Position numbers and translations under genes: made by a program. Below are positions 1,545 to 40,987 of a stretch of DNA of 64,000 nucleotides, in pieces. This DNA is from an uncultured Steroidobacteraceae bacterium (GTDB lineage Bacteria; Pseudomonadota; Gammaproteobacteria; Steroidobacterales; Steroidobacteraceae), in NCBI GenBank assembly GCA_964508005.1, contig CAZDTG010000002.1:41307-105306 (forward strand), read 5' to 3'. Each line of letters starts with the position of its first letter. The stretch's first letter is position 1. A model generated the notes under the pieces. It did no database searches. It was not told the DNA's origin and saw only the letters and a program-made list of their open reading frames with translations.

Positions 1545-3460
1545 CAAGCTGCCGCTGTGCGCACCCGCGAGGGTGGCGGCGTACTCGAGGCTGCCTCGGC
1601 GGGCATCGGCCTGGGCCCCGAGAGCAGTTGCCGCTCCCACAGGCTGAGGTTGAGCAGCCCCCAGAACAGGTGGCTGTGATTGTGCCGGCGTTGCTGATGC
1701 TCCTGCCAGCAGCGCTCCAGCGTGTCCTTGCGGAAATGCTCCGCGATGAGCCGCGACGAGAACACCTCGTCCCGGGTGAGCTGCAGGAGCTCGCCGCGGA
1801 TCCAGTTCTTCATCGGAATGCTGAAACCCTGTTTCGCGCGAGTCGCGATGCCCGGGGGCAGCCGCTCGCGCATGACGCTCTTCAGCAGCCACTTGGTTGT
1901 CAGTCCGCGCAGCTTGAGATTCGTCGGCAGGGAATAGCAGAACTCGACGACGCGGTGGTCGAGGAAGGGCGGGCGCACCTCCAGGCCGCACGCCATCGAC
2001 ATTTTGTCCACCTTCATCAGCACGCTGTCGGGCAGTACCGTGTTCAGCTCTACGTACTGCTCACGCGGGCCGCGCTCTTGCGGCGCGAGTCCCGACCAGC
2101 GTTTCACGGGTGCGAACGGATCGGAATCGATGGTCCGCAGCCATTCGGCGGCGAATAGCTGCGCCGCCTCCGCGGGGTCGAGGAAGTACTGCCAGCGAAT
2201 GTGCCCGCCTTCCGCGGGCAGGAGTGCTCCCTGCAGGAAGCGCTTGAGAACATTCCGGACCCCTTTTTTGCGCTCATCATCCGGTATCCGGCGCACGATG
2301 GCGCGGTAGAGCTGGTTGCGGAACGGGAGCGGCAGCGACTCGAGGCCCGCCGCCGCCTTGCTTGCTCTGAACCGGTCGTATCCCATCAGGAGCTCATCAC
2401 CGCCGTCGCCGCTGAGGCACACCTTCACATGACGACGCGCCTCTTCGCAGATGAGCATGAACGGCAGATTCGAGGGATCCGTGGTCGGCTCGTCCAGATG
2501 CCACACGGAGCGCTCGATCGCGGCAGCATCTACCGGCGGAATCAACAACTCCGTGTGCCGGGTCTGGAAGTGGTCCGCGACCTGCCGGGCATATTCGAAC
2601 TCGCTGAACGAGCGCTCACGGTAACCCAGTGCGAAAGTCTGCAACGACGTTGGTAACGCCTTCGCCAGGAAACTCACGACCGTGCTCGAATCGATGCCGC
2701 CGGACAGGAAAGCCCCGAGCGGGACATCGCTCATCGTGTGATCGGCGCACGAGCGCTCGAGGATCTCCAGCAGGCCCGCTCCACTCGGCTCGATGTCCTG
2801 CTGCTGCAGTGTCCAGTACCGCGACAACCGGACACCCTGCGGATCGACGATGAGCAGGCATCCGGGCAGGAGCTTGCGAATGCCTTCAAAGAGCGTGTCG
2901 GGCGCGGGGATGAACTCGTAGCCCATGAAATCGAACAGACCCTGCGCGTTCACCTTGCGGGGCACGAGCGGGTCGGCCAGGAGAGCTTTGATCTCGGAGG
3001 CGAAGCGGACCCGCGTCCCCTCCAGCATGTAGTAGAGCGGCTTGATACCCAGCCGGTCGCGAGCCAACACCAGGCGTCGCTGCCGGGCATCCCAGATCGC
3101 CAGGGCAAACATCCCCGTGAGGTGCTTCACGAAGTCGAGGCCATACTCCTCGTACGCATGCACGATGGATTCGGTATCGCTGCGGCTGCGGAATGCGTGC
3201 CCCTTGCTCTGCAGCCGCGCGCGCAGCTCCAGATGGTTGTAGATTTCGCCGTTGAAGGTGATCCAGATGGAGCCGTCTTCGTTCGAGAGGGGCTGCCGGC
3301 CGCCGTCACTCAGATCGACGATGCTCAGGCGGCGATGCCCCAGGGAGACTCCGTCGGCCACGTACGAGCCGTGGCCGTCGGGACCCCGATGCACCAGCAG
3401 GGCTTTCATCCGCTCAACGAGCGGCGCATCGGTCCAGTTGAAGCCGCAAATTCCGCACAT
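1544..3460 (-). CDS. asnB: Asparagine synthase (glutamine-hydrolysing), AsnB-type amidotransferase
   Basis: 638 aa. It has the N-terminal MCGICGF Ntn-amidotransferase motif and the PP-loop LGAFLSGGIDSSTV. The ATG at 3460 lies 3 nt after the upstream glycosyltransferase stop. Confidence 0.9.
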   Translation of the reverse strand: MCGICGFNWTDAPLVERMKALLVHRGPDGHGSYVADGVSLGHRRLSIVDLSDGGRQPLSNEDGSIWITFNGEIYNHLELRARLQSKGHAFRSRSDTESIVHAYEEYGLDFVKHLTGMFALAIWDARQRRLVLARDRLGIKPLYYMLEGTRVRFASEIKALLADPLVPRKVNAQGLFDFMGYEFIPAPDTLFEGIRKLLPGCLLIVDPQGVRLSRYWTLQQQDIEPSGAGLLEILERSCADHTMSDVPLGAFLSGGIDSSTVVSFLAKALPTSLQTFALGYRERSFSEFEYARQVADHFQTRHTELLIPPVDAAAIERSVWHLDEPTTDPSNLPFMLICEEARRHVKVCLSGDGGDELLMGYDRFRASKAAAGLESLPLPFRNQLYRAIVRRIPDDERKKGVRNVLKRFLQGALLPAEGGHIRWQYFLDPAEAAQLFAAEWLRTIDSDPFAPVKRWSGLAPQERGPREQYVELNTVLPDSVLMKVDKMSMACGLEVRPPFLDHRVVEFCYSLPTNLKLRGLTTKWLLKSVMRERLPPGIATRAKQGFSIPMKNWIRGELLQLTRDEVFSSRLIAEHFRKDTLERCWQEHQQRRHNHSHLFWGLLNLSLWERQLLSGPRPMPAEAASSTPPPSRVRTAAA

Positions 3461-3463
3461 GGG

Positions 3464-4696
3464 TCAGGAACGTGCCGCGGTCGCGGGGGTCGCAGCAGCC
3501 TCCATAGGTACCAACTCATCGAAAACCGCAAGGATGCGCTGTGCCGCCTGTTGCCAGGTGAAGCTCCTCGCGCGGACGACGCCGGCCCGCGCCAGCCGTG
3601 TGCGCAGCTCGTCCGAGCCCGTCACTTCCAACAGCGCCGCGGCGATGTCCGACTCATCGTAAGGATCGATCAGGCGCGCCGCGGAAGCGGCCACCTCCGG
3701 TCCGGCACCCGTAGAGGGCACGATGGCCGGACAGCCCGTCGCCAGGGCTTCCAGGATCGGCAGACCGAAACTCTCGAAGAGTGTCGCCAGCACGAAGCAG
3801 TCGGCGAGTTGATAGGCCATGGCGAGGCGCTCGTTCGGCACGAATCCGATGAAGTGCACGCCTTGCAGGTCGGCGTCGGAAAATCCCCGCGACCGAACGT
3901 ATCTCTCGATTTCCCGTCCTGCGACCACGAGGGGCAGGGGATGCGGCGTCTGTTGCCGGTAGCGGCGATAGGCTCGCAGCAGACGCTCGTTGTTGCCGCC
4001 GGGATAGTCGGGAAAGCCGCGGTGGCCGGTGTGCAGTACGCGCGCGACGGTGAGGATGAAGCGCTCGGGTAGCGCATACTCTTTGCGGAAGCTCTCCTGC
4101 GCGCCCGGATCCCCAGCCACGGTGAATTCGGGGGCGACGCCGGCGTAGGTGATGCCGGTCTGTGGAAGCGTCATCTTCATGTGACGAGTGAGCTCATCGA
4201 GGGTCGTCTTGGAGATGGCGAGCAGGGCGCTGGCCTTGCGGCAGTAAAGCGGCAGCATGAGCCTGATATAAATGTTGTCCCACCATGGATAGTTCCGGGG
4301 ATTGACATACCAGTCGCTGCTCTGCAGGACGAAGACGCCCGGAACGCGGCTCAACAGCGGAAGGGAGAACTTCGGGTTGAACAAGAGATCCACCTTCATC
4401 CGGTGCGCAGCCACCGGCACGAGCACCTGGTCCCAGATGAACTTGCTGGGGCAGGCGATCACGTGCGGCTGTGCGTTGCCGAACTCGGTCCAGCGATCGC
4501 ACGACTGTCCGCTGCCCAGGAAAATGACGTAGCGGGTCTGCGGATCCAGCGCGAGCAGCTGCCGCAATACCTGCTCGCAGTATCTGCCGAGCCCGTCGGG
4601 CTGATCGATCCCGCGCGCCATGACCCCGATCGTTCGTCGGGTCACCCCCCCGGCGGCACTAGTGCGCAAGCGGCTGGCTCCCGCGGAAAGTGGCAA
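3464..4696 (-). CDS. Glycosyltransferase family 4 (GT-B, group 1)
   Basis: C-terminal signature ...CFVLATLFESFGLPILEALATGCPAIVPSTGAGPEV. The start is ambiguous: 4696 overlaps the upstream gene by 38 nt, while ATG 4621 (MARGIDQPDGLGRY) is the more likely start. Confidence 0.85.
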   Translation of the reverse strand: MPLSAGASRLRTSAAGGVTRRTIGVMARGIDQPDGLGRYCEQVLRQLLALDPQTRYVIFLGSGQSCDRWTEFGNAQPHVIACPSKFIWDQVLVPVAAHRMKVDLLFNPKFSLPLLSRVPGVFVLQSSDWYVNPRNYPWWDNIYIRLMLPLYCRKASALLAISKTTLDELTRHMKMTLPQTGITYAGVAPEFTVAGDPGAQESFRKEYALPERFILTVARVLHTGHRGFPDYPGGNNERLLRAYRRYRQQTPHPLPLVVAGREIERYVRSRGFSDADLQGVHFIGFVPNERLAMAYQLADCFVLATLFESFGLPILEALATGCPAIVPSTGAGPEVAASAARLIDPYDESDIAAALLEVTGSDELRTRLARAGVVRARSFTWQQAAQRILAVFDELVPMEAAATPATAARS

Positions 4697-5843
4697 GCTT
4701 GTGGGCGGCGATGGACAGCAGGCTCGCCCGTCCCCGCCCCGGCAGCAGCGGCAGCCAGTCGGACCTCAGCCGTCCAAAGACCGGCAGCGGCAGCCGGGCG
4801 CCCCGCGCCCGGCGATAATCCAGGGCCACGCCGAACGCGTTGCGGAATCCAAACCGTTTGGCGAGCTCCAGCGAGAGCGGTGAGCCGAGCATCCAGGGGT
4901 AGGCCACGGAAGTCGGCGCATAACCCAGGTGAGCCCGAAACTCCGTCCGGGCCAGCTCGAACTCGGAGCTCACCAGGCTCACGAAGTCGGTGTCGCTCAT
5001 GAGCTCGCCGCTCAGCACGGGGGAGCGCGCGCGGTACAGCCTGTGCAGCCGGGCGGCCCAATCTGAAAGCTCGAAGAAAGCTTCTCCCCCCGACTCGGTC
5101 ACCAGCCGGATGCAACATTCCGTCAGTCCCGGACTCTCCAGATAACGCGACGCCGCGGAGAGAAGGGGAGCCGCGCGGTAGATGGGTGCGCCCGGCGGCG
5201 GCGGCCCGAGCCGGTCGCCGGCAACCGTGTTGCACATCGGCCAATCGTACAAGTCGCGCTGCGCGAGCAACTTCGGCGTTGCAAAGCCGACGAGCTGGTC
5301 GGAAGTCGCCACCAACGCGTGGCGATGGGCATGCGATTGCACGTCCACCCGCCCGGACTCCGCGCATGCGCGCACCTGTTCCCAGCTCATGAAGCGCTGA
5401 CAGCCCGTCACGGCGGCCGGATTCATCCAGTACGAAGGCACGAAAAGGGTGGCGCGGGCGTCGAAGGCACGCAGCGCCGGCAAGGCGACTTCGTAAAAAC
5501 TGCTCCTCGCATCGTCAAACGTGAGCAGAACGCGCTTCTCGCGGGTGCCCGCCTTGCGCGAGGCCGCGGCCATGAACTCATCGAGGCCGATCGTCCGATA
5601 GCCATTGGAACGCAGGAATTCGAGTTCCCGGCTGAAGGCGGACGTTTCCACATCATGATAGATGAAGACCGGAATCTCGCCTCGGGACGGGGGTAACCCC
5701 AACAAAAACAGGGGATAACGTGTCCTGAGCACGTTCCCCGCGCCGCGCAGCGCGCGCTTGGCCGCGGCAAAGGCCACTTCGCCCTGCTGGTTGTACCGTG
5801 CATTCCACTTCATGACGCTGAAGAATTGCCCAACGTGAGCCAA
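4659..5843 (-). CDS. Polysaccharide deacetylase (NodB/CE4 family)
   Basis: Motifs IPVFIYHDV and LLTFDDARSSFYEVALPALRAFDARATLFV. The codon at 5843 is TTG; the alternative ATG is at 5813. Confidence 0.8.
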   Translation of the reverse strand: MAHVGQFFSVMKWNARYNQQGEVAFAAAKRALRGAGNVLRTRYPLFLLGLPPSRGEIPVFIYHDVETSAFSRELEFLRSNGYRTIGLDEFMAAASRKAGTREKRVLLTFDDARSSFYEVALPALRAFDARATLFVPSYWMNPAAVTGCQRFMSWEQVRACAESGRVDVQSHAHRHALVATSDQLVGFATPKLLAQRDLYDWPMCNTVAGDRLGPPPPGAPIYRAAPLLSAASRYLESPGLTECCIRLVTESGGEAFFELSDWAARLHRLYRARSPVLSGELMSDTDFVSLVSSEFELARTEFRAHLGYAPTSVAYPWMLGSPLSLELAKRFGFRNAFGVALDYRRARGARLPLPVFGRLRSDWLPLLPGRGRASLLSIAAHKLATFRGSQPLAH

Positions 5844-5878
5844 AGCTCGGGTCCTGTGAGTTCCTGACGACGCGCTTG

Positions 5879-5897
5879 GGCCTGCAAGTTGCAGGCC
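5879..5897. promoter_or_regulatory. 19-bp palindrome in the divergent EPS promoter region (candidate operator)
   Basis: ggcctgcaa-g-ttgcaggcc has perfect 9-bp arms. It lies between the minus-strand deacetylase operon and the plus-strand ydjC-like/GT4 genes. Confidence 0.3.
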
Positions 5898-6052
5898 GGG
5901 GGCCGAGGGTGGAAGACGGATGAGCCGCTGTCATTGCCGAGGCTCAGGCCAAGCGAGCTTGGGCTGAGCTTGTGTGCGGCACGGTTCGTGCTCCCGTCCC
6001 GTGCACCATTCGATAATAGATTTCAGGGCGCTCACAATCGAGTCACGCGCGC

Positions 6053-6922
6053 TTGCACCCATCAGCTGACCTAATCCATGTAGCGAAGCATCGGACCCGA
6101 CTCCAAGACGGATTCCCGCTCGTCATTCATGCCGACGACTTCGGGGAAACGATCGAAATCACCAACGGCATCCGCCGGGGGATCGAGGCGGGTGTGCTCA
6201 CGAGCACCTCCATCATGGCGAACATGCCCGCGACGACTTACGCGCTGCAGCGCGTTCGCCCCCTTGCCGGCCATGCGAGCTTCGGGGTTCATCTGAACCT
6301 GTGCGAGGGGCGACCCCTCACCCGCGCACCGACCCTGAGCGGCGAAGCAGGAGAGTTCCACTGCAAACGGGATCTGATCCGGCGCGCGCTGTCGCGAAGA
6401 TTGTCTCTCCCGGAGTTGGAAAGTGAGATTTCGGCACAGATCGCGCTCGTGCGCGACGCCGGTGTGGCCATCTCCCATGTCGATGGACACAAGCACCTCC
6501 ACCAGCTGCCGGTGATCAGCACCGCGGTGGCCAATGTGTTGCCGCGGTTCGGCATCGAGCGCGTGCGCCTGATGCGCCTGCAAACTCTCGCCGCGCTCGG
6601 CGCCCGCGCCACATTGCTGCGCGAGCTGGCCGCGTCGCGTGCCGCCCGGATCTTCCGGCGTGCCGCCCTCCGTTCCCCGGTTCGCACGCTCGACTTGCGA
6701 GACATACTCGAAAACAGACTCGGCCGCCGCGGACCCCGGGCACTGGTGGACGCGCGCGGGCCCGTGGAGCTGTGTTGCCATCCCGCGTCCGCCGCCGCGC
6801 TGGTGGGCAAACCGAGCAGTCACCGCCGCTCACAGGAGCTCGATTATCTGCTATCGCCGCGTTTCCGCGAGCTCCTGGAAGAAGCTCAGGCGCGACCGGT
6901 CACCTACTGGGAGGTAGGCTGA
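6053..6922 (+). CDS. YdjC/ChbG-family carbohydrate deacetylase
   Basis: Motifs LVIHADDFG, HLNLCEGRP and HVDGHKHLHQLP. The TTG start at 6053 is uncertain. The stop is immediately followed by the next ATG at 6923. Confidence 0.8.
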   Translation: MHPSADLIHVAKHRTRLQDGFPLVIHADDFGETIEITNGIRRGIEAGVLTSTSIMANMPATTYALQRVRPLAGHASFGVHLNLCEGRPLTRAPTLSGEAGEFHCKRDLIRRALSRRLSLPELESEISAQIALVRDAGVAISHVDGHKHLHQLPVISTAVANVLPRFGIERVRLMRLQTLAALGARATLLRELAASRAARIFRRAALRSPVRTLDLRDILENRLGRRGPRALVDARGPVELCCHPASAAALVGKPSSHRRSQELDYLLSPRFRELLEEAQARPVTYWEVG

Positions 6923-8158
6923 ATGCGCATCCTGAAAATCGTCCCGCAGGCGTTCTACACCGCCAGGGGCACACCGCTGAGCGCCTACCACCGCGCGCGT
7001 GAGCTCATTGCACGCGGTCACGAGGTCGACATCCTGACGTATGGGGTCGGGGGCGACCCGCCGAACTCCGCAGCCCGCGTGTTCCGCTCGCGCGGACCGC
7101 ATTTCAAGAGCTCCATTCCCGCCGGCCCCTCGCGGCTGAAGATCTGGTTCGATTTCCTGCTCTTCATCAATCTGCTGGCACACCTTTCCCGGCACCGCTA
7201 TGACGTTCTCTATGCGCACGAGGAGGGCGCGCTGCTGGCGCGGCTGGCCGGCGCGATCTTCCGCATACCTTACATCTACGACATGCATTCGAGCCTGCCA
7301 TTGCAGATCACCGATTGGAAATTCAGCACCCGCCCGTCTGTGATCGCAGCGTTTCGCTGGGTGGAGCGTCTGAGCGTCCGGGGCGCCTGTGCGGTGGTAG
7401 CGATCTCTCCCGCGGTCGCGCGGGCCGCGCATAGCGCCTGCCCCGACACTCCCTGTGTGCTGTTAGCCAATCACTTCGAGCTGAATCAGGTCGTGCCGCG
7501 GGAGGAGGTCGCGGCGGTGCGCTCCCGTCATGGAATTCCGCTCGAGCGCAAGCTCGTGGTGTATGCCGGCTCGTTCGTCGCGTTACAGGCGCTGGATCTG
7601 CTGCTCGATGCGGTTCCCAGTGTTCTTGCCGCCGTGCCCAACACGACGTTCCTGTTGGTGGGAGGCAGCGACCCTGAAATCGCAGCCCTGCGCTCCCAGG
7701 CGCAACGGATGGGCATCTCCGAGCAGGTCATCCTGGAGCGCAATCTGCCGCAGAGTGCCGTCCCGGCTTATCTCGAGGCCGCGGACGTGCTCGTGTCGCC
7801 GCGCATCCAAGGCATCAACTCCCCCGGCAAGCTCCTCAACTACCTGGCATCCGGCCGGCCCATCGTGGCCACCGACACCCTGGTCCACAATCAGCTCCTT
7901 ACGGACAAATCCGCGATCCTGACTCCTCCAACCGCGGCGGGGCTGGCTGCGGGCCTCGTAACGGCGCTCACCGATCCTGCTCGCGTCGCCGAGGTCACGG
8001 CGGGTGCCGCCAAGCTCCTCAGCCGTTACTCCAGCAAGGCGGATCGGGACGCTGCCTACGAGGCAGTTCTGAATGCAGCTCGAATGGCGGCGCTCTCCAG
8101 AAGCGCGCGCCGCAGCACGCCCTCCACGGGTAGCGAAGGACGACGACCCTCCCCATAA
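6923..8158 (+). CDS. Glycosyltransferase family 4
   Basis: N-terminus MRILKIVPQAFYTARGTPLSAYHRARELIARGHEVDILTYG. C-terminal region ...LVSPRIQGINSPGKLLNYLASGRPIVATD. Confidence 0.85.
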   Translation: MRILKIVPQAFYTARGTPLSAYHRARELIARGHEVDILTYGVGGDPPNSAARVFRSRGPHFKSSIPAGPSRLKIWFDFLLFINLLAHLSRHRYDVLYAHEEGALLARLAGAIFRIPYIYDMHSSLPLQITDWKFSTRPSVIAAFRWVERLSVRGACAVVAISPAVARAAHSACPDTPCVLLANHFELNQVVPREEVAAVRSRHGIPLERKLVVYAGSFVALQALDLLLDAVPSVLAAVPNTTFLLVGGSDPEIAALRSQAQRMGISEQVILERNLPQSAVPAYLEAADVLVSPRIQGINSPGKLLNYLASGRPIVATDTLVHNQLLTDKSAILTPPTAAGLAAGLVTALTDPARVAEVTAGAAKLLSRYSSKADRDAAYEAVLNAARMAALSRSARRSTPSTGSEGRRPSP

Positions 8159-8356
8159 GCCTCCCTGTCGCCGGAGGCTGCCGCAGCGACGAGCGCACCG
8201 GGGCGGTCGACCCTGTCGCTCCACCTGCGGGAGCGTTATGTCAACTTCCGGATGACGCCAAACAAAGACAGTTGTGCCGCATCTGAGATTTTTGGTCTCA
8301 TATGTGGCAGATGCTGGCTCGGGTCGGCGGTGACTGACGGCAAAAAAAGGGAGCGT

Positions 8357-8986
8357 ATGGATTCGACGCACGCGTTGTTGACGCCCGGATACATCGAGCA
8401 TGCCGAAACGGGGACCCACGAGCGCCTGGTGCAGCCGCGCGGCTCGTTCTTCCTGACCCTGTGCCCTGTTGCGGCACCGATTCCCGTACCACAGCCGACA
8501 TCGCCCGGACTGCAATCCTACCGATTCTTCTTCACGCGCCGCGGGGAGAACGGCCGGGAGCGCTGCTGGCTCCACTTCGGCCATTTCCGCGGGGCGGCGG
8601 AGGCCCGAAAATGGCTCGAGGTCCTGCGGCGCGTCTATCCGCGCGCGGTGATGCGTCAAGTCCCGCAGACACATGCGGCACCTCCGGCGCGTGAGTCGCA
8701 ACGCGAAACACTCAGCGACAGTCAGGTGTTGGCGCTTCTCGAGAAGAGCCGGAGCGACGACAACCGTCCTCACGAGGCATCACTCCCAGCGACGCAGCGA
8801 CGCGACGAACCGACCCTCGAAGACACCCTGAACGAGCTCCGGCAGAGTGCCTACGACGGTTTGGAAGCGGACGGCGATCTGAGCGCCACCGGAGTGCGGC
8901 ACTTGCGAGTGGAGCTGCAAAAGAAGTCACCCTTTTCGCAACAACAGAAGAGGCGCGGCGCTGCGGCACGTGCCCGCAAGTCATAG
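8357..8986 (+). CDS. Hypothetical protein (possible SPOR-like core, charged C-terminal tail)
   Basis: ATG 8357 is preceded by aagggag. The segment FFLTLCPV...YRFFFTRRGENGRERCWLHFGHFRGAAEARKWLEVLRRVYPRAVM has the hydrophobic/Gly/aromatic pattern of SPOR-type domains. I recognise no family with confidence. Confidence 0.45.
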   Translation: MDSTHALLTPGYIEHAETGTHERLVQPRGSFFLTLCPVAAPIPVPQPTSPGLQSYRFFFTRRGENGRERCWLHFGHFRGAAEARKWLEVLRRVYPRAVMRQVPQTHAAPPARESQRETLSDSQVLALLEKSRSDDNRPHEASLPATQRRDEPTLEDTLNELRQSAYDGLEADGDLSATGVRHLRVELQKKSPFSQQQKRRGAAARARKS

Positions 8987-9008
8987 GCGGGGTAGCGGAG
9001 ATTCCCAA

Positions 9009-9644
9009 GTGCGCAAATATCTCGACATGGCCAAGCGTTCCACGGACCGCGCGGCGACTGTGATGCAACGTCTGTTGGGTTTGTCCCGCGAGCAGCCTCC
9101 CGCTCCGGGGCCGACCGACCTCAACGAGCTGGTTCGCGAGATGGCCGAGCTCCTGCGCAGCTCGCTCGGGCGCGGCGTGTCGATACGAACCCGCCTGGGT
9201 GAGGATGTTGGCACGACCGCCGTCGATGCGGGCGGCCTCGAGACCTCGATTCTCAATCTGGCCGTAAACGCCCGCGAGGCCATGGGAGCCTCCGGAGAGC
9301 TGACGATCGAGACGAGCAACGCGTTACTCGATGAGGCCGACCCCTTCGGCCATCGAGAGGTGACACCTGGTCACTACGTCGTAATCGCCATGGGCGATAC
9401 CGGCGCGGGCATGTCGCGAGAGGTCATCGCGCGGGCGTGCGATCCGTTCTTTAGCGGGCCGCCAGGCGAGGGCACCGGCCTCGGCCTCTCGCAGGTCCGC
9501 GACTTCCTGCGCCAGGCGCGAGGACATATCGCCATAGAAAGTGAGCCGGGCATGGGAACGACGGTCCGCCTGTATCTGCCGCGCTCGACGCCCAGCGCCT
9601 CGGATCCTGTGTACCGCAGCTCGCAGATTTACGCGATCTCGTAG
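9009..9644 (+). pseudogene. Truncated sensor histidine kinase: HATPase_c domain only, no H-box or sensor
   Basis: N, G1 and G2 boxes are present (ILNLAVNAREAM, VIAMGDTGAGM, GEGTGLGLSQV). The sequence begins inside the second DHp helix (LDMAKRSTDRAATVMQRLLGLSREQPP). The space upstream is occupied by another frame's ORF. A GTG at 9009 with GGAG upstream could still give a 211-aa product. Confidence 0.7.
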
Positions 9645-9674: not shown

Positions 9675-9704
9675 CATATGTGTTAGGTTGTCCCACATAT
9701 GGAA
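9675..9704 (+). promoter_or_regulatory. Conserved leader motif/inverted repeat embedding the start codon of cassette copy A
   Basis: CATATGTG-N11-CACATATG is a perfect 8-bp inverted repeat, and the ATG at 9699 lies in the right arm. The 26-nt TGTGTTAGGTTGTCCCACATATGGAA matches 38697-38722 at 24/26 positions. No Shine-Dalgarno sequence is visible. Confidence 0.4.
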
Positions 9705-10502
9705 ACGGAACCCGCATCGTCAAGCCAGGCGCTGGCGGCGAGCCGCCAGTGGCTGCGGCCTCTGGTCAATGTATTGCTCCGGTGTGGCATCACCTGGCGC
9801 GAATTCGCGGAGCTTGCAAAGTCGGTGTACGTCGAGGTGGCCACGCAACGGTTCGGCAAGCGCGGCCGTCCCACGAACGTATCGCGCACCGCGGTCCTTA
9901 CCGGCCTGGCGCGGCGGGAAATACGCAGGCAGCGCGAACTGATCGAGGCAGGGCCGCAACCTCTGACGGGCTACGTCACGAAGGGCTCGCTGGTGCTGTC
10001 TGCCTGGCATCTCGATCCGCAGTTCCTCGATGCGGCGGGCAAACCGGCGCTGCTGCCCCTCGAGGGCGACGGCGCCTCGTTCGCGACATTGCTGCGGCGC
10101 TGTGGGGCAGGGGACGTGCGGCCCTCGACCCTGTTGAAGGAGCTGCGCAGCGCAGGTGCCGTCCGCAAGACGGCCGACGGGCGCCTCGAAGCGCTGCAAC
10201 GCATCTACATCCCACACACGATGGATGAGCAGCTCATTCGCTTGTGGGGCACGGTGCTCGCCGATGTCGCAACCACGTACGCTCATAACCTCACTCGCGA
10301 GAGGAAGCCTGCACGCTTCGAGCGCGCGGCGGTCAACGATCGGGTGCGCGCCAGCGCATTGCCTGAATTCCGGCAATTCCTCGATCAGGAGGGCCAGGCA
10401 TTTCTCGAGCGGCTCGACGCGTGGCTGACGCAGCACGAAGCGAAAGATGACTCGGACGCCACCATCCGCCTGGGCGCTGGCGTGTACCACATCGAGGACT
10501 GA
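9699..10502 (+). CDS. Uncharacterised 267-aa protein with N-terminal HTH-like segment (cassette gene 1, copy A)
   Basis: METEPASS...WREFAELAKSVYVEVATQRFGKRGRPTNVSRTAVLTGLARREIRRQRE... It has a clear paralog at 38717-39517. Coding is supported by conservation between copies with mostly synonymous or conservative differences. Confidence 0.8.
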   Translation: METEPASSSQALAASRQWLRPLVNVLLRCGITWREFAELAKSVYVEVATQRFGKRGRPTNVSRTAVLTGLARREIRRQRELIEAGPQPLTGYVTKGSLVLSAWHLDPQFLDAAGKPALLPLEGDGASFATLLRRCGAGDVRPSTLLKELRSAGAVRKTADGRLEALQRIYIPHTMDEQLIRLWGTVLADVATTYAHNLTRERKPARFERAAVNDRVRASALPEFRQFLDQEGQAFLERLDAWLTQHEAKDDSDATIRLGAGVYHIED

Positions 10503-10527
10503 GATCCGCATACAGGGCGGCCACGTT

Positions 10528-11946
10528 ATGTATAGGACTTTGACGATGAATCGCACGGGCGCCTTGATCCTGACGGTCGCGGCATTGCTGCTGGCAGCTT
10601 GCGGCGGCTCGGCGATCACCGCCGGCATACAGGGATCGGGCAGCCCGGCGCCCGCGGCAGCGGTCGGCCCCATCACGGGGTTCGGCAGCATCTTCGTGAA
10701 TGGGGTCGAGTACACCACCTCCGGCGCGCAGATTCTCATCGATGGCCAGGCCGGCACGGAGACGCAGCTGCAAACGGGCCAGGTGGTCGCCATCACAGGC
10801 AGCGTGAATTCGGGCGGCACTACCGGCACGGCGACGCAGGTCACCTTCAACGGCGATGCGCAAGGGCCGGTGGCGCAGATCGATCTCGTGGCCAACACGC
10901 TGGTGATCCTTGGGCAGAAGGTGCAGATAACGGCCTCCACGTTGTTGGACGCTACGATTCAACCTGCGGACCTCACGGGCCTGCAGACAGGCACGATCGT
11001 CGAAGTGAGCGGATTGGCCGATGCCTCGGGGACGATCGTAGCCTCGCGGCTCGACGTCAAGCCTGCCGGCAGCACATTCCAGGTCCGAGGTGTCCTCCAG
11101 GGGCTCGACACCACGACTCACACCTTCCAGATCAACGGACTCACGGTCGATTACGGCTCCGCGACGCCAACAGGCACACTCGCGAATGGCAGTACCGTGC
11201 AGGTGCAGGGAGCGGCCGTGGGCTCCACGGGGACGCTTCTCGCGACACATGTGGAGATCCTGCCGGGGCTGGGGACCTCCACGAACGAGCGCGCGGACAT
11301 CGACGGGATCATTACGGCCTTCACCTCGACTGCCGATTTCGTCGTTCAGGGCGAACACGTCACGACGGATGCCAACACACAGCTCGTGCTGCACGGCGTG
11401 AGCCTCGGCGTGAACATCGAAGTCGACGTGCAGGGGCAATTCAACTCGGCGGGGATGCTGCAGGCAACGAAGGTCGAGACGAGGCCGCGCAGCATGAGTC
11501 TCGTGCGCGGTCCGGTCGACGCGGTGAGCGCTTCCGGCCTGAGCATTCTCGGAGTCACCATCGTGACGAGCGCGTCGACGGGGCTCGAGGACAGGTCGAA
11601 CCAACACCTGCGGCAGCTCCGGCTGACCGATCTGCACGTCGGAGATTACGTCGAGGCCGATGGGACCGAAGGCCCGCCCGGCACGCTCGCCGCGGCGATC
11701 CTCACGCGCGAGAACACCAACTCCCGCGTTTATCTGCAGGGCCTCGCAGGCAATCTCGCGCAGCCCAGCTTCACCGTGCTCGGGGTCGGGGTGACCACCA
11801 CGTCGCAGACCCGGTTCGCCGGCCCCGGCGGAGCAGCTGGTGGCGCGGCAACGTTCTTCGCCCAGGCGGCGAACCGCATCGTCAAGGTGAGCGGGGTGTT
11901 CTCGAACGGAGTGCTCACGGCCGACCAGGTGCAGATCGAACAGTAG
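10528..11946 (+). CDS. Repeat-rich lipoprotein, about six tandem beta-type modules (resembles DUF5666-type repeats) (cassette gene 2, copy A)
   Basis: Signal peptide plus lipobox MYRTLTMNRTGALILTVAALLLAAC. The motif GFGSIFVNGVEY is followed by repeated ...G.VVEV.G.....G.I.A..V... modules. An alternative ATG is at 10546. The paralog is at 39550-40977. Confidence 0.8.
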   Translation: MYRTLTMNRTGALILTVAALLLAACGGSAITAGIQGSGSPAPAAAVGPITGFGSIFVNGVEYTTSGAQILIDGQAGTETQLQTGQVVAITGSVNSGGTTGTATQVTFNGDAQGPVAQIDLVANTLVILGQKVQITASTLLDATIQPADLTGLQTGTIVEVSGLADASGTIVASRLDVKPAGSTFQVRGVLQGLDTTTHTFQINGLTVDYGSATPTGTLANGSTVQVQGAAVGSTGTLLATHVEILPGLGTSTNERADIDGIITAFTSTADFVVQGEHVTTDANTQLVLHGVSLGVNIEVDVQGQFNSAGMLQATKVETRPRSMSLVRGPVDAVSASGLSILGVTIVTSASTGLEDRSNQHLRQLRLTDLHVGDYVEADGTEGPPGTLAAAILTRENTNSRVYLQGLAGNLAQPSFTVLGVGVTTTSQTRFAGPGGAAGGAATFFAQAANRIVKVSGVFSNGVLTADQVQIEQ

Positions 11947-11949
11947 CCC

Positions 11950-13140
11950 TCAGCGAACCGCAGTTGGACGTTGCCTGCCGGCCATCTCACCCGGACGCGC
12001 CGCATCGCGTGCCGGTACGCCAGTTTCGAGAAAGGTCTTGAGGCGGACCAGGTCCTCATCGAGCTCTGTCTTCGGATCGGCCCCGAACAGCTTGACGACG
12101 ACATGTCCGAGCGCGCCTGCCGGCGGGGCGTACGTCATCTCGACGTGGAGCCGGGTGCCGGCTCCGGCTCTCTCGAAGCGGATGATGCCAGCGTGAGCTA
12201 CGGTGGAATTGGCGACGGTACGCCACGCGAGCAGCTCATACGGCTCACACGCGGTCGTCTCGGCATCCCACTCGACTGGGACACCCGCTGGTCCGGCTAC
12301 CACCCAATGCGAGCGTCCATCCGAATATCGGGTCACGCTCCGGACGTTCCGCATGAAGGCAGGGAAGTTTTCGTAATCGGCGAGCACCTCGAATACCTCC
12401 TCGATCGGCGCTTCGACGTGCATCGTCTTGCGGATGTCAATGGCATATCGATCGGTTATGCCGGCGAGCCGCCGGACCGGTGCGTTCGTTATGCTGCGTG
12501 CCAGAAGCAAACTCCCAACCGCGAGGGCAATGCCCCCGAGGAGGCCGCGATCCCGCGTACCGAGGATCTGGCGGGCCCCGATGAGCATGAGCCCGCCACC
12601 GCAGGTGCCGGCGAGCAGTCGCGCGGCCGGAGACCAGCTCGTCTGGGGCGGGCCGAAGCGGGACCCGCGCAGCGACCGCCCGCCCTGAAGCGACGGCACT
12701 CCCTCGGCACTCTCGTACACGGCCAGCTCATCCAGCGCTTCTCTGATACCGCGCACCGAGAGGACGACGTCCAATAGCGCTGCATGCTCGCGAGCGAGCA
12801 CTGCGCCGCTCAGCCTCACCCGTCCGTTTCGGGCCTCGACGTGAATCGCACCCGGGTGCGAAACGGCCCGCCCCAAGGCTGCGCGCACGCGCTCGACCAG
12901 CACCTCGTCAGTGGCCTTATCCGGTGTGAGCACCGAGCGCATACGCGCATCGATCCCTCGTGTCCGGTGCCAAAGATCCCGCCCGGCGACGCCGACACCT
13001 TCCGCGAGATCGCCAGCGGCGCTTCCCAAGCGGTCGCGCAGCAATGCGCGCCGCCGCCGGCCGGTCGCGGGATCCAACCAATACATCGCAGCGGCTCCCA
13101 AGGCCGCGCCGGCCAGGACTCGTGTGACGGGAGTTATCAT
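11950..13140 (-). CDS. BON-domain / membrane / SRPBCC (cyclase-dehydrase-like) fusion protein
   Basis: ATG 13140 has GGAGG upstream. The BON-like segment is VLVERVRAALGRAVSHPGAIHVEARNGRVRLSGAV. A hydrophobic span follows, then an SRPBCC-like C-terminus (VEAPIEEVFEVLADYENFPAFM...WRTVANSTVAHAGIIRFE). Confidence 0.7.
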   Translation of the reverse strand: MITPVTRVLAGAALGAAAMYWLDPATGRRRRALLRDRLGSAAGDLAEGVGVAGRDLWHRTRGIDARMRSVLTPDKATDEVLVERVRAALGRAVSHPGAIHVEARNGRVRLSGAVLAREHAALLDVVLSVRGIREALDELAVYESAEGVPSLQGGRSLRGSRFGPPQTSWSPAARLLAGTCGGGLMLIGARQILGTRDRGLLGGIALAVGSLLLARSITNAPVRRLAGITDRYAIDIRKTMHVEAPIEEVFEVLADYENFPAFMRNVRSVTRYSDGRSHWVVAGPAGVPVEWDAETTACEPYELLAWRTVANSTVAHAGIIRFERAGAGTRLHVEMTYAPPAGALGHVVVKLFGADPKTELDEDLVRLKTFLETGVPARDAARPGEMAGRQRPTAVR

Positions 13141-13246
13141 GCTCAGCCCCTCCGATGCGGGTCTCCAAGGACGTGCAGCGAGCTGAAGCAAGGTGCGCGC
13201 CCGACCTGCACGCGGTGACCGTGACCGTGTCGTTCCGAAAGGCGGC

Positions 13247-14080
13247 TCAGCGGCGCTGTGAGGCGGACGGTGCCGGATATGACGGTCCGGGTCGTCCGTC
13301 TTCATCCCAGCCGTGCTCGCCGATCAGCGGCACGAACGCGACACCGCCGAGATCCTCCTCCTGGTACGCCGTCTCGCTCAGCCGTGTGATCTTGCGTAGT
13401 GTTTGTCTGTACCGCTGCGCGCCGACCGGAATGATCAAGCGGCCGGCGCTTGCGAGCTGCTCCTTGAGCGCCTGGGGCACCTCGGGTCCACTCGCTGCGA
13501 CCAGAATGGCGTTGAATGGTGCGGCTTGCGGCCAGCCGCATGTTCCGTCCCCGACACGCAGCTCGACGTTGTCATACCCGAGTGTCGCGATCCGGCGTTG
13601 CGCCGCCTCGACGAGGACGGCATGACGCTCGATGCCGTAAACCCGCGTGACGATGCGGCTCATCACCGCCGTCGCGTAACCCGAGCCCGCGCCCACTTCC
13701 AACACGCGATCGGTGGGTTTCAGCTCGGCCGCCGCGATCATCAGGGCCACTATGTAGGGTTGCGAGATCGTCTGGCTCGCGTCGATCGGCAACGGGCCGT
13801 CCTCGTACGCGAGCTCCTCGAAGCCGGGCTCGACGAACAGCTCGCGGGGCACAGCCTGCATGGCTTCGAGCACGCGGGAGTCGCGCACGCCGCGGCCGGC
13901 GATCTGAATTTGCACCATTCGCTGGCGGGCGCGGCTGAAGTCCGGCACGTGGCATAGCTCCAGCGCAAGGCTGCGCGTCATCGGCTTGATGGCCACCTGA
14001 GCCGTTAAGCCTTCACCGGCCGGATTGTTCCCGGGCGGCCGCACTGCGGCGACCGTGCTGCAGCCGGAAGCTGCCTGCAT
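13247..14080 (-). CDS. pcm: Protein-L-isoaspartate O-methyltransferase
   Basis: Motifs TISQPYIVALM and VLEVGAGSGYATAVMS, followed by ...IPVG....Q.L. The start is ambiguous. ATG 14080 overlaps the upstream stop as TGATG; a shorter alternative uses ATG 13981. Confidence 0.85.
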   Translation of the reverse strand: MQAASGCSTVAAVRPPGNNPAGEGLTAQVAIKPMTRSLALELCHVPDFSRARQRMVQIQIAGRGVRDSRVLEAMQAVPRELFVEPGFEELAYEDGPLPIDASQTISQPYIVALMIAAAELKPTDRVLEVGAGSGYATAVMSRIVTRVYGIERHAVLVEAAQRRIATLGYDNVELRVGDGTCGWPQAAPFNAILVAASGPEVPQALKEQLASAGRLIIPVGAQRYRQTLRKITRLSETAYQEEDLGGVAFVPLIGEHGWDEDGRPGPSYPAPSASQRR

Positions 14081-14856
14081 CAGCTGTCGAAATGCGACTC
14101 CTGATGAAGGTTGGTGCTGCGCCACAGATACAAGGCGAGGAGGGGGCGTGCACCCGTCCGCATCGCGTGCGGCTCATCGCTCGCGTGATGGATTACGGCT
14201 CCCGGCAGGCGCTCCCGCCAGATTCCGTCACCGTTTTGCCATGACGCGGTGCCGGCTAACGGGATATAGATCTCCTCGGCTTCGTGGCGATGGCGGGGAT
14301 AAAAAGTCGCGGGTCCAAGGAGCAGGAAACCACACGCAAGCCGTTCGCTCGCGAGCGCGCCAGTCAGACCTGCGATCTCACTGTAGCCATAATTCTCCAG
14401 GAATTCGGCACCGGCCTGGGCAGCCGTGTAGGTCCGCCGCCACGCCATCCACGGTGCATCACGACAGATCTGTTCGACCAACTCGAGGCAGACAGCCGGT
14501 GCATCCGCCCGCGCCTCGGGGAGCCAGCGCAGGGCCGGTATGGGTGACGGCACGACCGTACGGCGCGCACCGGCAACCGGCCAGTCAGCGAGGTACGGAC
14601 CCAGCGCGGCCGCTTGCAGCGAGACGAGCAGCGCGTGCGTCCGTGCGATGAGATCCACGCGCCCAGGATCCGGGTCCATTGTTCCGTCCTGCGACTTGTC
14701 CGGCTGCGCATTCGCGGGTTCGAGGCGGGAGGTCTCGCGGGGAACCGCTGGACAGGTGGCGACTAACGCCGCCAGTGCGCCAATGCTCGTGAATCGCCGC
14801 CGTGCATCATGGACCATGTGTTGATCGTAGCACGCACGGTCCCGGGCTGGGCGCAC
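14080..14856 (-). CDS. Cupin-domain protein (HxHxxxxExY metal motif as in DMSP-lyase-type cupins)
   Basis: The sequence FYPRHRHEAEEIYIPLAGTASW...HHASDEPHAMRTG carries a cupin metal motif. The start is uncertain: GTG 14856, ATG 14817 (followed by an RRRF Tat-like motif) or ATG 14679. Confidence 0.6.
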   Translation of the reverse strand: MRPARDRACYDQHMVHDARRRFTSIGALAALVATCPAVPRETSRLEPANAQPDKSQDGTMDPDPGRVDLIARTHALLVSLQAAALGPYLADWPVAGARRTVVPSPIPALRWLPEARADAPAVCLELVEQICRDAPWMAWRRTYTAAQAGAEFLENYGYSEIAGLTGALASERLACGFLLLGPATFYPRHRHEAEEIYIPLAGTASWQNGDGIWRERLPGAVIHHASDEPHAMRTGARPLLALYLWRSTNLHQESHFDS

Positions 14857-35100: not shown

Positions 35101-35149
35101 GGAAGTCACCCTGAGGAATCCGCGTTTCAGATCATGAGGGCGGTGCGGC

Positions 35150-37382: not shown

Positions 37383-37396
37383 GGCTCGATGAGCTT

Positions 37397-37882: not shown

Positions 37883-37953
37883 GCGCGCGCAGCCCGGGGC
37901 TGCTGCGCCTCGACCGGAATGCTGTTGCTCGCACACGCTGGTCATGACCGTTG

Positions 37954-38642: not shown

Positions 38643-38716
38643 GTCAGTGACTTATGACAACTCCGCGCCCGTTGCTTTGGCCGGAAGGGCGGCCGGTGTG
38701 TTAGCGTGTCCCACAT

Positions 38717-39517
38717 ATGGAATCTGCGGAAAAGGGAGACGTTCTCTCCGCCACCCGTCAGTGGCTGAACCCACTGGTCCACGTTCTCATCCGCTGTGGA
38801 ATCACGTGGCGGGAATTCTCTGAGCTCGCGAAGACGGTGTACGTCGAGGTGGCGACTGGAGAGTTCGGCAAGCGCGGACGGCCGAGCAACGTGTCGCGGA
38901 CGGCACTGCTCACGGGTCTCGCCCGGCGGGAGGTGCGCAAGCAGCGCGAGCGGCTCGAATCCGGACCCGCGCCCCTGGAAGGTTACGTCACGAAGGGATC
39001 GCTGGTGCTGTCAGCGTGGCACCTCGACCCCGAGTTCCTGGACGCCACTGGGAAGCCCTCATTGCTGCCCGTGAACGGAGAGGGCGCAACGTTCGAGAGC
39101 TTACTGCGGCGCTGTGGTGCCACGGACGTCCGTGCGTCGACGCTGTTGAAAGAGCTACGCGCGGCAGGTGCGGTTCGCGCGACGCCGGATGGCCGAGTCG
39201 AAGCGCTGAAGCGCATTTACATCCCGCACACGATGGCCCAGGAGCTCATTCGGCTGTGGGGTACCGTGATAGCGGACATCGGCACGACCTATGTCCACAA
39301 CCTCACTCGAAATCCCAAAATACCCGCCCGGTTCGAGCGCGCGGCGGTGAACGATCGCGTGCGCGCGAGCACCCTGCCTGAATTCCAACAGTTCCTCCAG
39401 CAGGAGGGCCAGGCGTTTCTCGAGCGGATGGACGCCTGGTTGACGGCACATCAGGCAGACGCCGGTGACGAGAGTGGGATCCGTGTGGGCGCCGGTGTAT
39501 ATCACATCCAGGACTGA
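38717..39517 (+). CDS. Uncharacterised 266-aa protein with N-terminal HTH-like segment (cassette gene 1, copy B)
   Basis: MESAEKGDVLSATRQWLNPLVHVLIRCGITWREFSELAKTVYVEVATGEFGKRGRPSNVSRTALLTGLARREV... It is collinear with the 9699-10502 product. Confidence 0.8.
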   Translation: MESAEKGDVLSATRQWLNPLVHVLIRCGITWREFSELAKTVYVEVATGEFGKRGRPSNVSRTALLTGLARREVRKQRERLESGPAPLEGYVTKGSLVLSAWHLDPEFLDATGKPSLLPVNGEGATFESLLRRCGATDVRASTLLKELRAAGAVRATPDGRVEALKRIYIPHTMAQELIRLWGTVIADIGTTYVHNLTRNPKIPARFERAAVNDRVRASTLPEFQQFLQQEGQAFLERMDAWLTAHQADAGDESGIRVGAGVYHIQD

Positions 39518-39549
39518 CCCTCCAAGCTTCAAGAGATGGTGTATCGTTT

Positions 39550-40977
39550 ATGTGTGGAATAACGACGGGCAATCGCAGCCGGGCGGGGATCGCCGCCGCC
39601 ATGGCATTGCTGCTGATGGCCTGCGGGCAGTCGGGCGATGTGGCCGGAATCCAGGGCTCCGGCCTGGTGAGTCCCGCGGCGGTAACAACCGGTCCGATCT
39701 CCGGCTTCGGGAGCGTCTTCGTCGGCGGCGTCGAGTACGCGACCTCCGCGGCACAGATTGTCATCGACGGCCAGACCGCCACGGAAGCGCAACTGCAGAT
39801 CGGCCAGGTGGTCACTATCCACGGCACCGTCAATTCCGACGGCATCTCGGGGGCTGCGACGGCGCTCACTTTCACGGGGGACGTCCAGGGGCCGGTGTCG
39901 CAGGTCGACCTGGTGGGCAACACCTTCACCGTACTCGGCCAGACCGTGCGGGTCACGGCCTCTACGACCCTGGACGCGAGCATTCAACCGGCCGATCTTA
40001 CTGGCCTGCCGAGCAGCGCGGTCGTCGAAGTGAGCGGGTTTGCGGACCCGGCCGGTGAGATCGTCGCCTCGCGCGTGGACGTCAAGGCCGCCGGCAGCGG
40101 CTTGCAGCTGAAGGGCGTTGTCCAGGGGCTCGATACCACGGCCCACACGTTCCAGATCAACGGGTTTGTCGTTGACTACAGCGCCGCGACCTCTGCTCCC
40201 GCGTTGAGCAGTGGCGATACGGTCGTGGCGCACGGCTCGGCACTCACTCCCTCGGGTGCGCTGTTAGCGACACACCTGGAAGTGTTGCCCGGTCTCGGGG
40301 CGAGCGCGAACGAACGTGCGGATCTCGACGGCCTCATCACGACGTTCACGTCCAGCTCCGATTTCGCGCTGGGCGGCCAACGGGTCGCGGCGGGGGCGAG
40401 CACGGTCCTCGTACTACACGGACTCACGCTCGCTACGGGAGTCGAAGTCGACGTCAAGGGGACGTTCGATACCTACGGAGTGCTGCAGGCGCAAAAGATC
40501 GAGGCGAAGCCCTTCAGCTCGGGCCTTACAGCCGGACTGGTCGATTCCGTGAACGCCTCGACGAACACGCTGAGCGTGCTGGGCGTGAACATCAACGCCG
40601 GCATCGCGACCGCGTTCGAGGATCGATCCAGTCAACACGTGAGGACATTTCGCCTGACCGACCTGCACACGGGTGACTACGTCGTGGTGGGCGGAACCGA
40701 GAGCACCCCAGGTACGCTCGATGCAGCAACGCTCGTGCGCGAGAACCTCACGAGCCGCTCTTACTTGCAAGGAACCGCCCGCAACGTCGCGCAACCCAAC
40801 TTCACCGTTCTGGGTGTCACCGTGACGACGACTGCGCAGACCCGATTCGCGGGTCCCGGCGGCGCGGCGAACGGGGCTGCGACGTTCTTCAGCCAGGCAT
40901 CCAACCGTCTCGTTCGCGTGAGCGGGTCCTACTCGGGCGGCGTTTTGACGGCCACTCAGGTGCAGCTTGCGCAGTAG
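39550..40977 (+). CDS. Repeat-rich lipoprotein (cassette gene 2, copy B)
   Basis: Lipobox in MCGITTGNRSRAGIAAAMALLLMAC. GFGSVFVGGVEY is followed by the same module series as 10528-11946. Confidence 0.8.
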   Translation: MCGITTGNRSRAGIAAAMALLLMACGQSGDVAGIQGSGLVSPAAVTTGPISGFGSVFVGGVEYATSAAQIVIDGQTATEAQLQIGQVVTIHGTVNSDGISGAATALTFTGDVQGPVSQVDLVGNTFTVLGQTVRVTASTTLDASIQPADLTGLPSSAVVEVSGFADPAGEIVASRVDVKAAGSGLQLKGVVQGLDTTAHTFQINGFVVDYSAATSAPALSSGDTVVAHGSALTPSGALLATHLEVLPGLGASANERADLDGLITTFTSSSDFALGGQRVAAGASTVLVLHGLTLATGVEVDVKGTFDTYGVLQAQKIEAKPFSSGLTAGLVDSVNASTNTLSVLGVNINAGIATAFEDRSSQHVRTFRLTDLHTGDYVVVGGTESTPGTLDAATLVRENLTSRSYLQGTARNVAQPNFTVLGVTVTTTAQTRFAGPGGAANGAATFFSQASNRLVRVSGSYSGGVLTATQVQLAQ

Positions 40978-40987
40978 CGCAAGGGAA

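Follow-up and report, generated by a model that had tools for sequence, protein, structure and literature searches.

What does a pair of uncharacterised genes do, and why would a bacterium keep two copies of it? The question is raised by a 64,000-nt stretch of DNA from an uncultured Steroidobacteraceae bacterium (GenBank assembly GCA_964508005.1, contig CAZDTG010000002.1, positions 41,307 to 105,306 of the forward strand), here called the window. It carries, twice and each time on the + strand, a gene for a DUF6502 protein (gene 1) followed by a gene for a DUF5666 repeat lipoprotein (gene 2). An earlier note, made from the sequence, had described the two copies as a helix-turn-helix (HTH)-like protein paired with a repeat lipoprotein. 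We find that the copies are old paralogues of a gene pair that is conserved as a unit in other genomes. We put the chance at about even that each copy is a self-repressed regulator-effector operon, with the DUF6502 protein as regulator and the envelope lipoprotein as output.

Two old paralogous copies of one gene pair

Copy A occupies 9699-11946 and copy B 38717-40977. Gene 1 lies at 9699..10502 in copy A (267 residues) and at 38717..39517 in copy B (266 residues), and gene 2 follows at 10528..11946 (472 residues) and 39550..40977 (475 residues). Gene order and strand are the same in both copies, as the earlier note had it, and the short spacer that it reported between the genes measures 25 nt in copy A, against 32 nt in copy B. 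BLASTP aligned the proteins end to end, with 200/265 residues identical for gene 1 (75%) and 295/475 for gene 2 (62%), close to the three quarters and two thirds estimated by eye. The companion statement that nucleotide identity was clearly lower did not hold: gene 1 showed 73% nucleotide against 76% amino acid identity, and gene 2 67% against 62%.

A single blastn block of 2304 columns pairs 9679-11947 with 38697-40978 at 69% DNA identity, and homology runs from 20 nt 5' of the gene 1 ATG to the gene 2 stop codon. Beyond this block blastn detected no significant similarity between the flanks, and tblastn found exactly two cassette copies in the window. Codon alignments (Nei-Gojobori) of the gene 1 paralogues gave a synonymous divergence (dS) of 1.31, which is saturated, a nonsynonymous divergence (dN) of 0.17 and a dN/dS of 0.13; the gene 2 values were 1.06, also saturated, 0.30 and 0.28. 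Third codon positions are about 50% identical, and in both copies the open reading frames (ORFs) are full length and have kept their Pfam scores. Saturated dS combined with dN/dS values nowhere near 1 indicates that the duplication is old and that purifying selection acts on the two genes in each copy, as the earlier note had argued. Furthermore, close orthologues retain the copy-specific neighbours described below, which identifies the copies as stable paralogues fixed at separate chromosomal sites rather than mobile copies.

The pair is conserved as a unit in other genomes

Species-representative genomes were scanned with a DUF6502 alignment, which yielded 64 loci, 60 of them assessable and 4 cut by contig ends. 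All 64 belong to Steroidobacteraceae, Woeseiaceae or unclassified gammaproteobacterial metagenome-assembled genomes. A DUF5666-repeat gene was found 3' of the DUF6502 gene, on the same strand, in 50/60 assessable loci; the junction is a short gap or a stop/start overlap, with overlaps in several loci. Distant members (35-45% identity, on long metagenomic contigs) keep the pairing as well: one DUF6502 gene is followed by three DUF5666 genes in L065 (6001-9915), the order is DUF5666-DUF6502-DUF5666 in L066, and a single pair is present in L073. The linkage of the two families on which the earlier note had staked its reading therefore extends well beyond the window. Gene 1 and gene 2 divergences correlate across loci (Spearman rho 0.74), and at least 12 genomes carry two or three cassettes. 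These results show that the DUF6502-DUF5666 pair is conserved as a unit, and this type of pair is common in Steroidobacteraceae, Woeseiaceae and related uncultured Gammaproteobacteria of soil and sediment.

Other arrangements were also recorded. The DUF5666-like neighbour is convergent in three distant loci, as scored in L054 and L055 and judged by eye in L057, and no DUF5666 gene lies near the most distant members, L059 and L062. A different lipoprotein stands beside the DUF6502 gene in L044. In L045 (9992-10797) the DUF6502 sequence is spread over two overlapping ORFs, apparently a frameshift or a pseudogene, and a histidine kinase and a LuxR-type response regulator stand 3' of it in place of the DUF5666 gene. 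Expanded arrays with an extra DUF5666 gene upstream of gene 1 occur in L006, L019, L051 and L066. At L054:10891-11746, L055:5659-6472 and L057:10378-11272, long tandem oligopeptide repeats precede the convergent gene, such as numerous copies of AIGGTRLR in L057, and their motif is reminiscent of the conserved GIxG(S/T)G behind the gene 2 signal peptide. A conserved third gene was sought by clustering all flanking ORFs, and the neighbours proved sporadic: receiver-domain proteins in 24 loci, a methyltransferase in 8, an ORF like 8252-8986 of the window in 7, and a DUF4382-like lipoprotein, labelled by eye from its sequence, in 5.

Gene 1 encodes a DUF6502 protein with features of a DNA-binding regulator

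Gene 1 is a full-length DUF6502 protein (PF20112, gathering score 27 bits). Copy A matched over residues 13-267 with 171.4 bits (E 2e-50) and copy B over residues 11-265 with 158.5 bits, which gives a family to a protein that the earlier note had guessed to be another DUF. The HTH proposed in that note, GRPTNVSRTAVLTGLARREI, falls in the most conserved part of the family and was modelled as a helix at 61-68, a turn and a helix at 72-84. The conservation maximum reads GxRGRPTNxSRxAxLTGLxRxEV, and across 95 diverse DUF6502 members G53, R55, G56 and R57 are each at least 90% conserved. In copy A the RGRP arm covers residues 55-58 (nt 9861-9872, + strand) and the HTH residues 61-84 (nt 9879-9950, + strand), both placed by conservation and by the model. 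RGRP is the core of AT-hooks and of the minor-groove arm of Hin. Here this core, with its basic flank (K54-R-G-R-P58), sits directly before the first HTH helix and constitutes an AT-hook-like or Hin-like minor-groove arm that is predicted to contact DNA.

The AlphaFold2 model, built from a 95-sequence alignment, has a predicted local distance difference test score (pLDDT) of 92. It consists of an N-terminal helical unit (8-105) that houses the HTH, a winged-helix-like unit (128-165) and a helical hairpin (177-245). When this model was searched against the PDB with Foldseek, HetR-DNA complexes were the first and sole full-length matches, followed by MarR, IclR and other winged-helix proteins; the BFVD search returned generic HTH proteins only. 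The structural neighbours in both databases were all DNA-binding regulators. At the sequence level, the DUF6502 profile had no match among PDB sequences at E up to 10. The protein is basic, with an isoelectric point (pI) of 9.4 in copy A and 8.9 in copy B, and carries no signal peptide. Family-wide, 6,408 clusters at 50% identity reach E <= 1e-3, and almost all of the best 150 of these are stand-alone proteins of about 270 residues. The one apparent fusion among those 150, of the LigA C-terminus to DUF6502 (P0411), is a fused gene call. On the strength of the conserved RGRP-HTH segment, the HTH and winged-helix model, the DNA-binding structural neighbours and a pI of about 9, we infer that gene 1 specifies a cytoplasmic, basic, dimeric DNA-binding regulator.

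HetR is the closest known protein for comparison by fold. In HetR, two more domains come after an N-terminal helical HTH unit; the protein forms an intertwined HTH dimer core with flap and hood domains and binds a palindromic promoter site. The gene 1 model aligned with HetR (PDB 4yrv, 4hri and 3qoe) over about 290-298 columns at a Foldseek probability of 0.96, HetR having 299 residues against 267. However, a template modelling (TM) score of 0.35, a root mean square deviation (rmsd) of 14 Å and an E value of 0.013 make this a weak fold-level match. Membership of the HetR family was rejected by sequence: hhalign with a HetR query checked against 4hri and 4yrv gave a probability of 0.13%, and the DUF6502 profile drew no PDB match at all. 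The model thus presents HetR as at most a distant fold analogue of gene 1, not as a member of the same family.

Gene 2 encodes a predicted exported chain of six small barrels

Gene 2 contains six stretches of DUF5666 (PF18914, a 60-residue domain profile with a gathering score of 27 bits), scoring 164.2 bits (E 8e-49) in copy A and 143.9 bits in copy B. The DUF5666-type repeat that had been suspected is therefore present far above the cutoff in both copies. A jackhmmer self-search and the structure model each confirmed six modules, which in copy A span residues 40-472 (nt 10645-11943, + strand). Lipoproteins were recognised by a signal peptide ending in [LVI][ASTVI][GAS]C; gene 2 begins with a basic n-region and a hydrophobic stretch, followed by a lipobox with Cys25 that reads LAAC in copy A (nt 10591-10602, + strand) and LMAC in copy B (nt 39613-39624, + strand). 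With this lipobox and six DUF5666 barrels, the description of gene 2 as a lipoprotein of tandem beta-type modules stands. Cys25 is nearly invariant among close homologues; an export signal is present in all relatives and a lipobox in at least 31/49. Residue +2 is Gly, as it usually is in the relatives. Gly at +2 is an outer-membrane sorting signal by the Escherichia coli rule, a rule not validated for this lineage. The lipobox is followed by AGIQGSG, which has the conserved family form (A/G)GI(Q/E/D)G(S/T)G, and the relatives occur in six-module and four-module versions. In length, architecture and conserved motifs the proteins of the window match the DUF6502 and DUF5666 families with no difference.

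The copy A model is a row of six consecutive small beta-barrels (pLDDT 85, predicted TM score 0.79). Its best Foldseek match was to the tandem cold-shock domains of Unr (E 5e-7). Drosophila Unr CSD789 (7zhh) likewise strings together small five-stranded barrels whose packing between domains is fixed, whereas gene 2 specifies an acidic, exported bacterial lipoprotein and Unr is a eukaryotic cytoplasmic RNA-binding protein; the overall TM score is 0.15-0.27. Nucleic-acid binding by the gene 2 product is unlikely, since the protein is exported and acidic (pI 4.7 in copy A, 4.7-4.8 overall). Its composition is rich in Thr, Gly, Ala and Val. Single modules resembled PilY2, CusF and eukaryotic oligonucleotide/oligosaccharide-binding (OB) folds, with target TM scores of 0.6-0.68. 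Neither gene 2 nor the single-module DUF5666 profile matched any PDB sequence. Within the modules, the columns that hardly vary are G, T, V, G and A. Gene 2 thus probably specifies an exported, lipid-anchored chain of OB/cold-shock-like barrels in the cell envelope, most likely a structural or ligand/partner-binding protein rather than an enzyme or a metal chaperone.

The conserved leader resembles a promoter within an operator

The earlier note had also reported a conserved 26-nt leader before each copy. Its conservation is real: the 20 non-coding nucleotides are identical at 18/20 positions between the copies (p of about 2e-4 against the third-position background of about 50%), the first two codons complete the segment, and the next three 20-nt blocks upstream are identical at 3-4/20. 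It looks, however, like a core promoter within a dyad-symmetric, operator-like element rather than like a transcribed leader. In copy A this element (9675..9701, + strand) is a perfect dyad, CATATGTG-N11-CACATATG, with 8-bp arms, the right one of which takes in the gene 1 start codon. In copy B (38693..38719, + strand) it reads CCGGTGTG-N11-CACATATG, the left arm having 3 mismatches. A search of the window for the dyad pattern returned two sites only, both at cassette starts (copy A with 0 mismatches; 0.07 expected), and the copy A dyad was significant against shuffles (p = 0.003). Inside the dyad element, 9 nt before the ATG, lies an extended -10-like box, composed of TG at 9681-9682 and TAGGTT at 9684-9689 in copy A and of TG at 38699-38700 and TAGCGT at 38702-38707 in copy B, both on the + strand.

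The same layout recurs across the family. Upstream regions of all loci were aligned on the gene 1 ATG, which occupies a fixed position across DUF6502 loci. The pattern TAnnnT peaks 8-9 nt 5' of the ATG (20/61 non-redundant loci, against 0-3 at other offsets), and the upstream consensus is TGnG.TA...T..CTCACAT-ATG. AT-richer relatives have TTGACA-like hexamers 16-17 nt before the -10-like box. With strict criteria, those of the promoter scan tool itself, 3 loci have -35/-10 promoters whose -10 ends 8-9 nt before the ATG, where 0.02 were expected; when the criteria were relaxed and the window was set to 6-10 nt, the count rose to 9, against an expected 0.19. Dyad symmetry that beats 95% of shuffles was present in 16/61 loci, where about 3 were expected, and in 20/61 the centre of the best inverted repeat falls at -12, with the right arm entering the start codon. 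The arms vary by lineage yet stay symmetric (CATATGTG/CACATATG, ATGTGGGG/CCCCACAT and ATTATTGAGG/CCTCAATAAT), with lineage-specific arm types CACAT, CCCCAC and CCTCAA.

A -10 box that ends 8-9 nt before the ATG would, at standard spacing, place the start of transcription 2-4 nt before the ATG. Shine-Dalgarno-like motifs were found 5' of gene 1 in 4/64 loci. The gene 1 mRNA is thus predicted to be near-leaderless and to lack a Shine-Dalgarno sequence. Lambda cI expressed from PRM and TetR of Tn1721 are autoregulated regulators made from leaderless mRNAs. The cassette resembles them in that a -10-like box stands just 5' of the gene 1 ATG, a Shine-Dalgarno sequence is absent and an operator-like dyad overlaps the predicted promoter. 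It differs in that its putative regulator has no sequence or fold relation to either, a second gene for an exported protein follows, and the transcription start here is a prediction from sequence.

A proposed self-repressed regulator-effector operon

If these features are taken together as a self-repressed operon, a DUF6502 dimer would read the dyad-symmetric operator with its RGRP minor-groove arm and its HTH (residues 55-84). The operator would be centred on the operon's own -10 box, with the start codon included in its right arm, and occupancy by the protein would keep RNA polymerase out, so that the operon would be repressed by its own product. Transcripts would begin 2-4 nt before the ATG, effectively leaderless and with no Shine-Dalgarno sequence. 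The bicistronic mRNA would yield the regulator together with the exported, lipid-anchored chain of six OB/cold-shock-like barrels. This lipoprotein would be the module's output and would serve the envelope in a structural or binding capacity.

Several observations weigh against this model. The copy B dyad alone is not significant, its left arm being only a remnant, and many Steroidobacteraceae loci lack a significant dyad. A generic sigma-70 scan found no promoter in either copy of the window; both have a poor -35, and their -10 boxes match just at T, A and T. The Shine-Dalgarno control on other genes is weak, since longest-ORF starts are unreliable. We infer, rather than observe, that the dyad-binding protein is DUF6502 itself. 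Different operator classes go with different HTHs, a suggestive pattern that phylogeny confounds. The cassette encodes neither a sensor domain nor a membrane transducer, which leaves a response to any signal unexplained, and the accessible parts of the searched literature hold no experimentally defined function for either family. The family is not strictly tied to DUF5666, as there are solo DUF6502 copies in L008, L012 and L013. Finally, one DUF6502 subfamily has no DUF5666 partner and is encoded directly 3' of smc-zipA-ligA on the same strand (L067:6001-6852, L071:5001-5831 and L073:5001-5774).

Two further observations concern these unpaired genes. The solo copies (L008:6747-7622, L012:10792-11622 and L013:10965-11561; - strand) all face the same convergent conserved gene, GIY-YIG-like by eye, and an ABC transporter ATPase is next after that gene in L008 and L012 and about 3 kb further in L013. 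Near the ligA-adjacent copies there is a second DUF6502 gene, paired with DUF5666 or with an unannotated gene.

Alternative explanations

All alternatives are less supported than the self-repressed operon. The one that survives best, although we consider it improbable, is that DUF6502 does not regulate its own operon and acts instead as a nucleoid, replication or segregation accessory, or as a cytoplasmic partner of the lipoprotein precursor, the linkage to DUF5666 then reflecting some other functional coupling. The smc-zipA-ligA subfamily, one gene call of which is fused to the LigA C-terminus, and the solo copies fit this idea, and the kinds of winged-helix protein that were matched (ScpB, replisome organisers) also mediate protein contacts. 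Against it, a promoter-overlapping dyad at the gene's own start codon suits an autoregulator, the RGRP-HTH segment is the most conserved part of DUF6502, and the two genes co-evolve and are often translationally coupled.

We think it distinctly unlikely that gene 2 specifies an accessory factor of type IV pili, related to PilY2 but with several modules, and that gene 1 regulates pilus-related functions. The idea draws on the position of copy B, which is divergent from a minor-pilin operon (31846-38415, - strand) with ComP/PilE-like, GspH/FimT-like, PilV-like, PilW and PilY1 genes. The copy B orthologue L068 is similarly divergent from a pilE-fimT-pilV-pilW-pilX-pilY1 operon, and L005 has a single divergent pilin-like gene upstream of gene 1. 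Single gene 2 modules superpose on PilY2 (3tdq; target TM 0.67-0.68), and Pfam gave a sub-threshold PilY2 match (E 0.0055). That match (PF14481) scores 16.7 bits, below the 25-bit gathering score, and occurs in copy A only; the single-module profile found no PilY2 among PDB sequences, and the OB fold is very common. Membership of a PilY2 system by context was rejected, copy B lying outside the minor-pilin operon and copy A elsewhere, next to polysaccharide genes instead of pilus genes. A general link to type IV pili failed as well, as prepilin genes were present in the flanks (up to 10 kb per side) of just 3/73 loci.

Could the conserved leader act as RNA, with transcription starting further upstream and a hairpin hiding the start codon? 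The 8-bp arms of copy A could pair and sequester the AUG. Compared with shuffled sequence, however, the predicted fold of the leader is no more stable (z +0.62 and -1.54); the folds of the two copies differ, and copy B has no intact left arm. Moreover, the spacer between the arms is the positionally conserved -10 box, with a canonical -35 in AT-richer relatives, which would leave the left arm untranscribed. We rejected the RNA hairpin as very unlikely.

A shade less probable still is a CusF-type periplasmic metal-binding protein. Both PilY2 and CusF (1zeq, 2qcp) are envelope-located and superpose on single gene 2 modules (target TM 0.6-0.68, rmsd 2.5-3.5 Å), CusF at about 0.6, and copy B has a weak CcmE match. 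Unlike either, gene 2 has six tandem modules, a lipid anchor and no significant sequence similarity to them, including no sequence match to CusF. Metal ligands are scarce, His making up 1.3% and Met 0.8% of residues, with the sole Cys at the lipid-attachment site. Only Gly, Thr, Val and Ala occupy the nearly invariant positions of the modules, so that the His/Met/Met(/Trp) metal site of CusF is absent from them.

That the repeat is a mobile element such as a composite transposon, a recent duplication or a pair with one decaying copy, as two cassettes 29 kb apart in one window might suggest, is scarcely credible and is refuted by homology confined to the leader-to-stop stretch with no flanking repeats or transposase, by the saturated dS, low dN/dS and intact ORFs, and by orthologues at the same positions in related metagenomes.

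Surroundings of the two copies

Copy A is preceded by an exopolysaccharide-type cluster (1544-8158) of asparagine synthase-like, two GT4 glycosyltransferase, polysaccharide deacetylase and YdjC genes, which is kept in L069. Between this cluster and copy A lie an ORF with no family match (8252-8986, + strand) and an orphan gene with only HATPase_c (8970-9644, + strand), the catalytic half of a histidine kinase without HisKA or a sensor part. The two are also separate genes in the close relatives L069 and L070. The copy A-type orthologues in these relatives follow polysaccharide genes, a 208-aa ORF and an orphan HATPase_c gene. Counting other loci, 7 have an ORF like 8252-8986 close to gene 1, and in five of them it is the gene immediately upstream. 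On the other side, convergent with gene 2 of copy A, is a gene for a 451-residue BON and SRPBCC (polyketide cyclase-like) protein (11950-13305, - strand), next to which lies a protein-L-isoaspartate O-methyltransferase gene (13247-14125, - strand). This arrangement too is conserved in L069 and L070.

What the cassette means for its families

The genes of the window are ordinary members of two catalogued, uncharacterised Pfam families. NCBIfam, PADLOC and PHROGs had no match for either protein. In the literature searched there was no mention of DUF6502 and nothing relevant on HetR homologues in proteobacteria; DUF5666 appeared, in the parts of that literature that were accessible, in gene and protein tables only, with no function. 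As far as the searched literature shows, the linkage, promoter architecture and predicted folds of the two families are undescribed. New here are the quantified paralogy, the cross-genome synteny, the confident fold models and the family-wide promoter/operator architecture. The finding itself is a conserved-hypothetical operon and not a surprising new mechanism.

A bolder reading, which we regard as unlikely, is that DUF6502, whose clusters at 50% identity number more than 6,000, constitutes a large and so far unrecognised class of transcription factors in proteobacteria. Its members would share a HetR-like three-domain architecture and palindrome binding known only from cyanobacteria, would be made from leaderless mRNAs and would control an envelope "rod" lipoprotein of tandem OB barrels, with the paralogues wired to polysaccharide in copy A and to type IV pili in copy B.

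The cassette offers a testable entry to two sizeable families that abound among little-studied Gammaproteobacteria of soil and sediment, and the self-repressed operon is a hypothesis with defined reagents: a 27-bp dyad, a 267-residue protein and a start predicted to be near-leaderless. Should the regulator model prove true, DUF6502 could be renamed as a transcription-factor family and DUF5666 lipoproteins as its regulated envelope output, and the annotation of thousands of genes would be improved.

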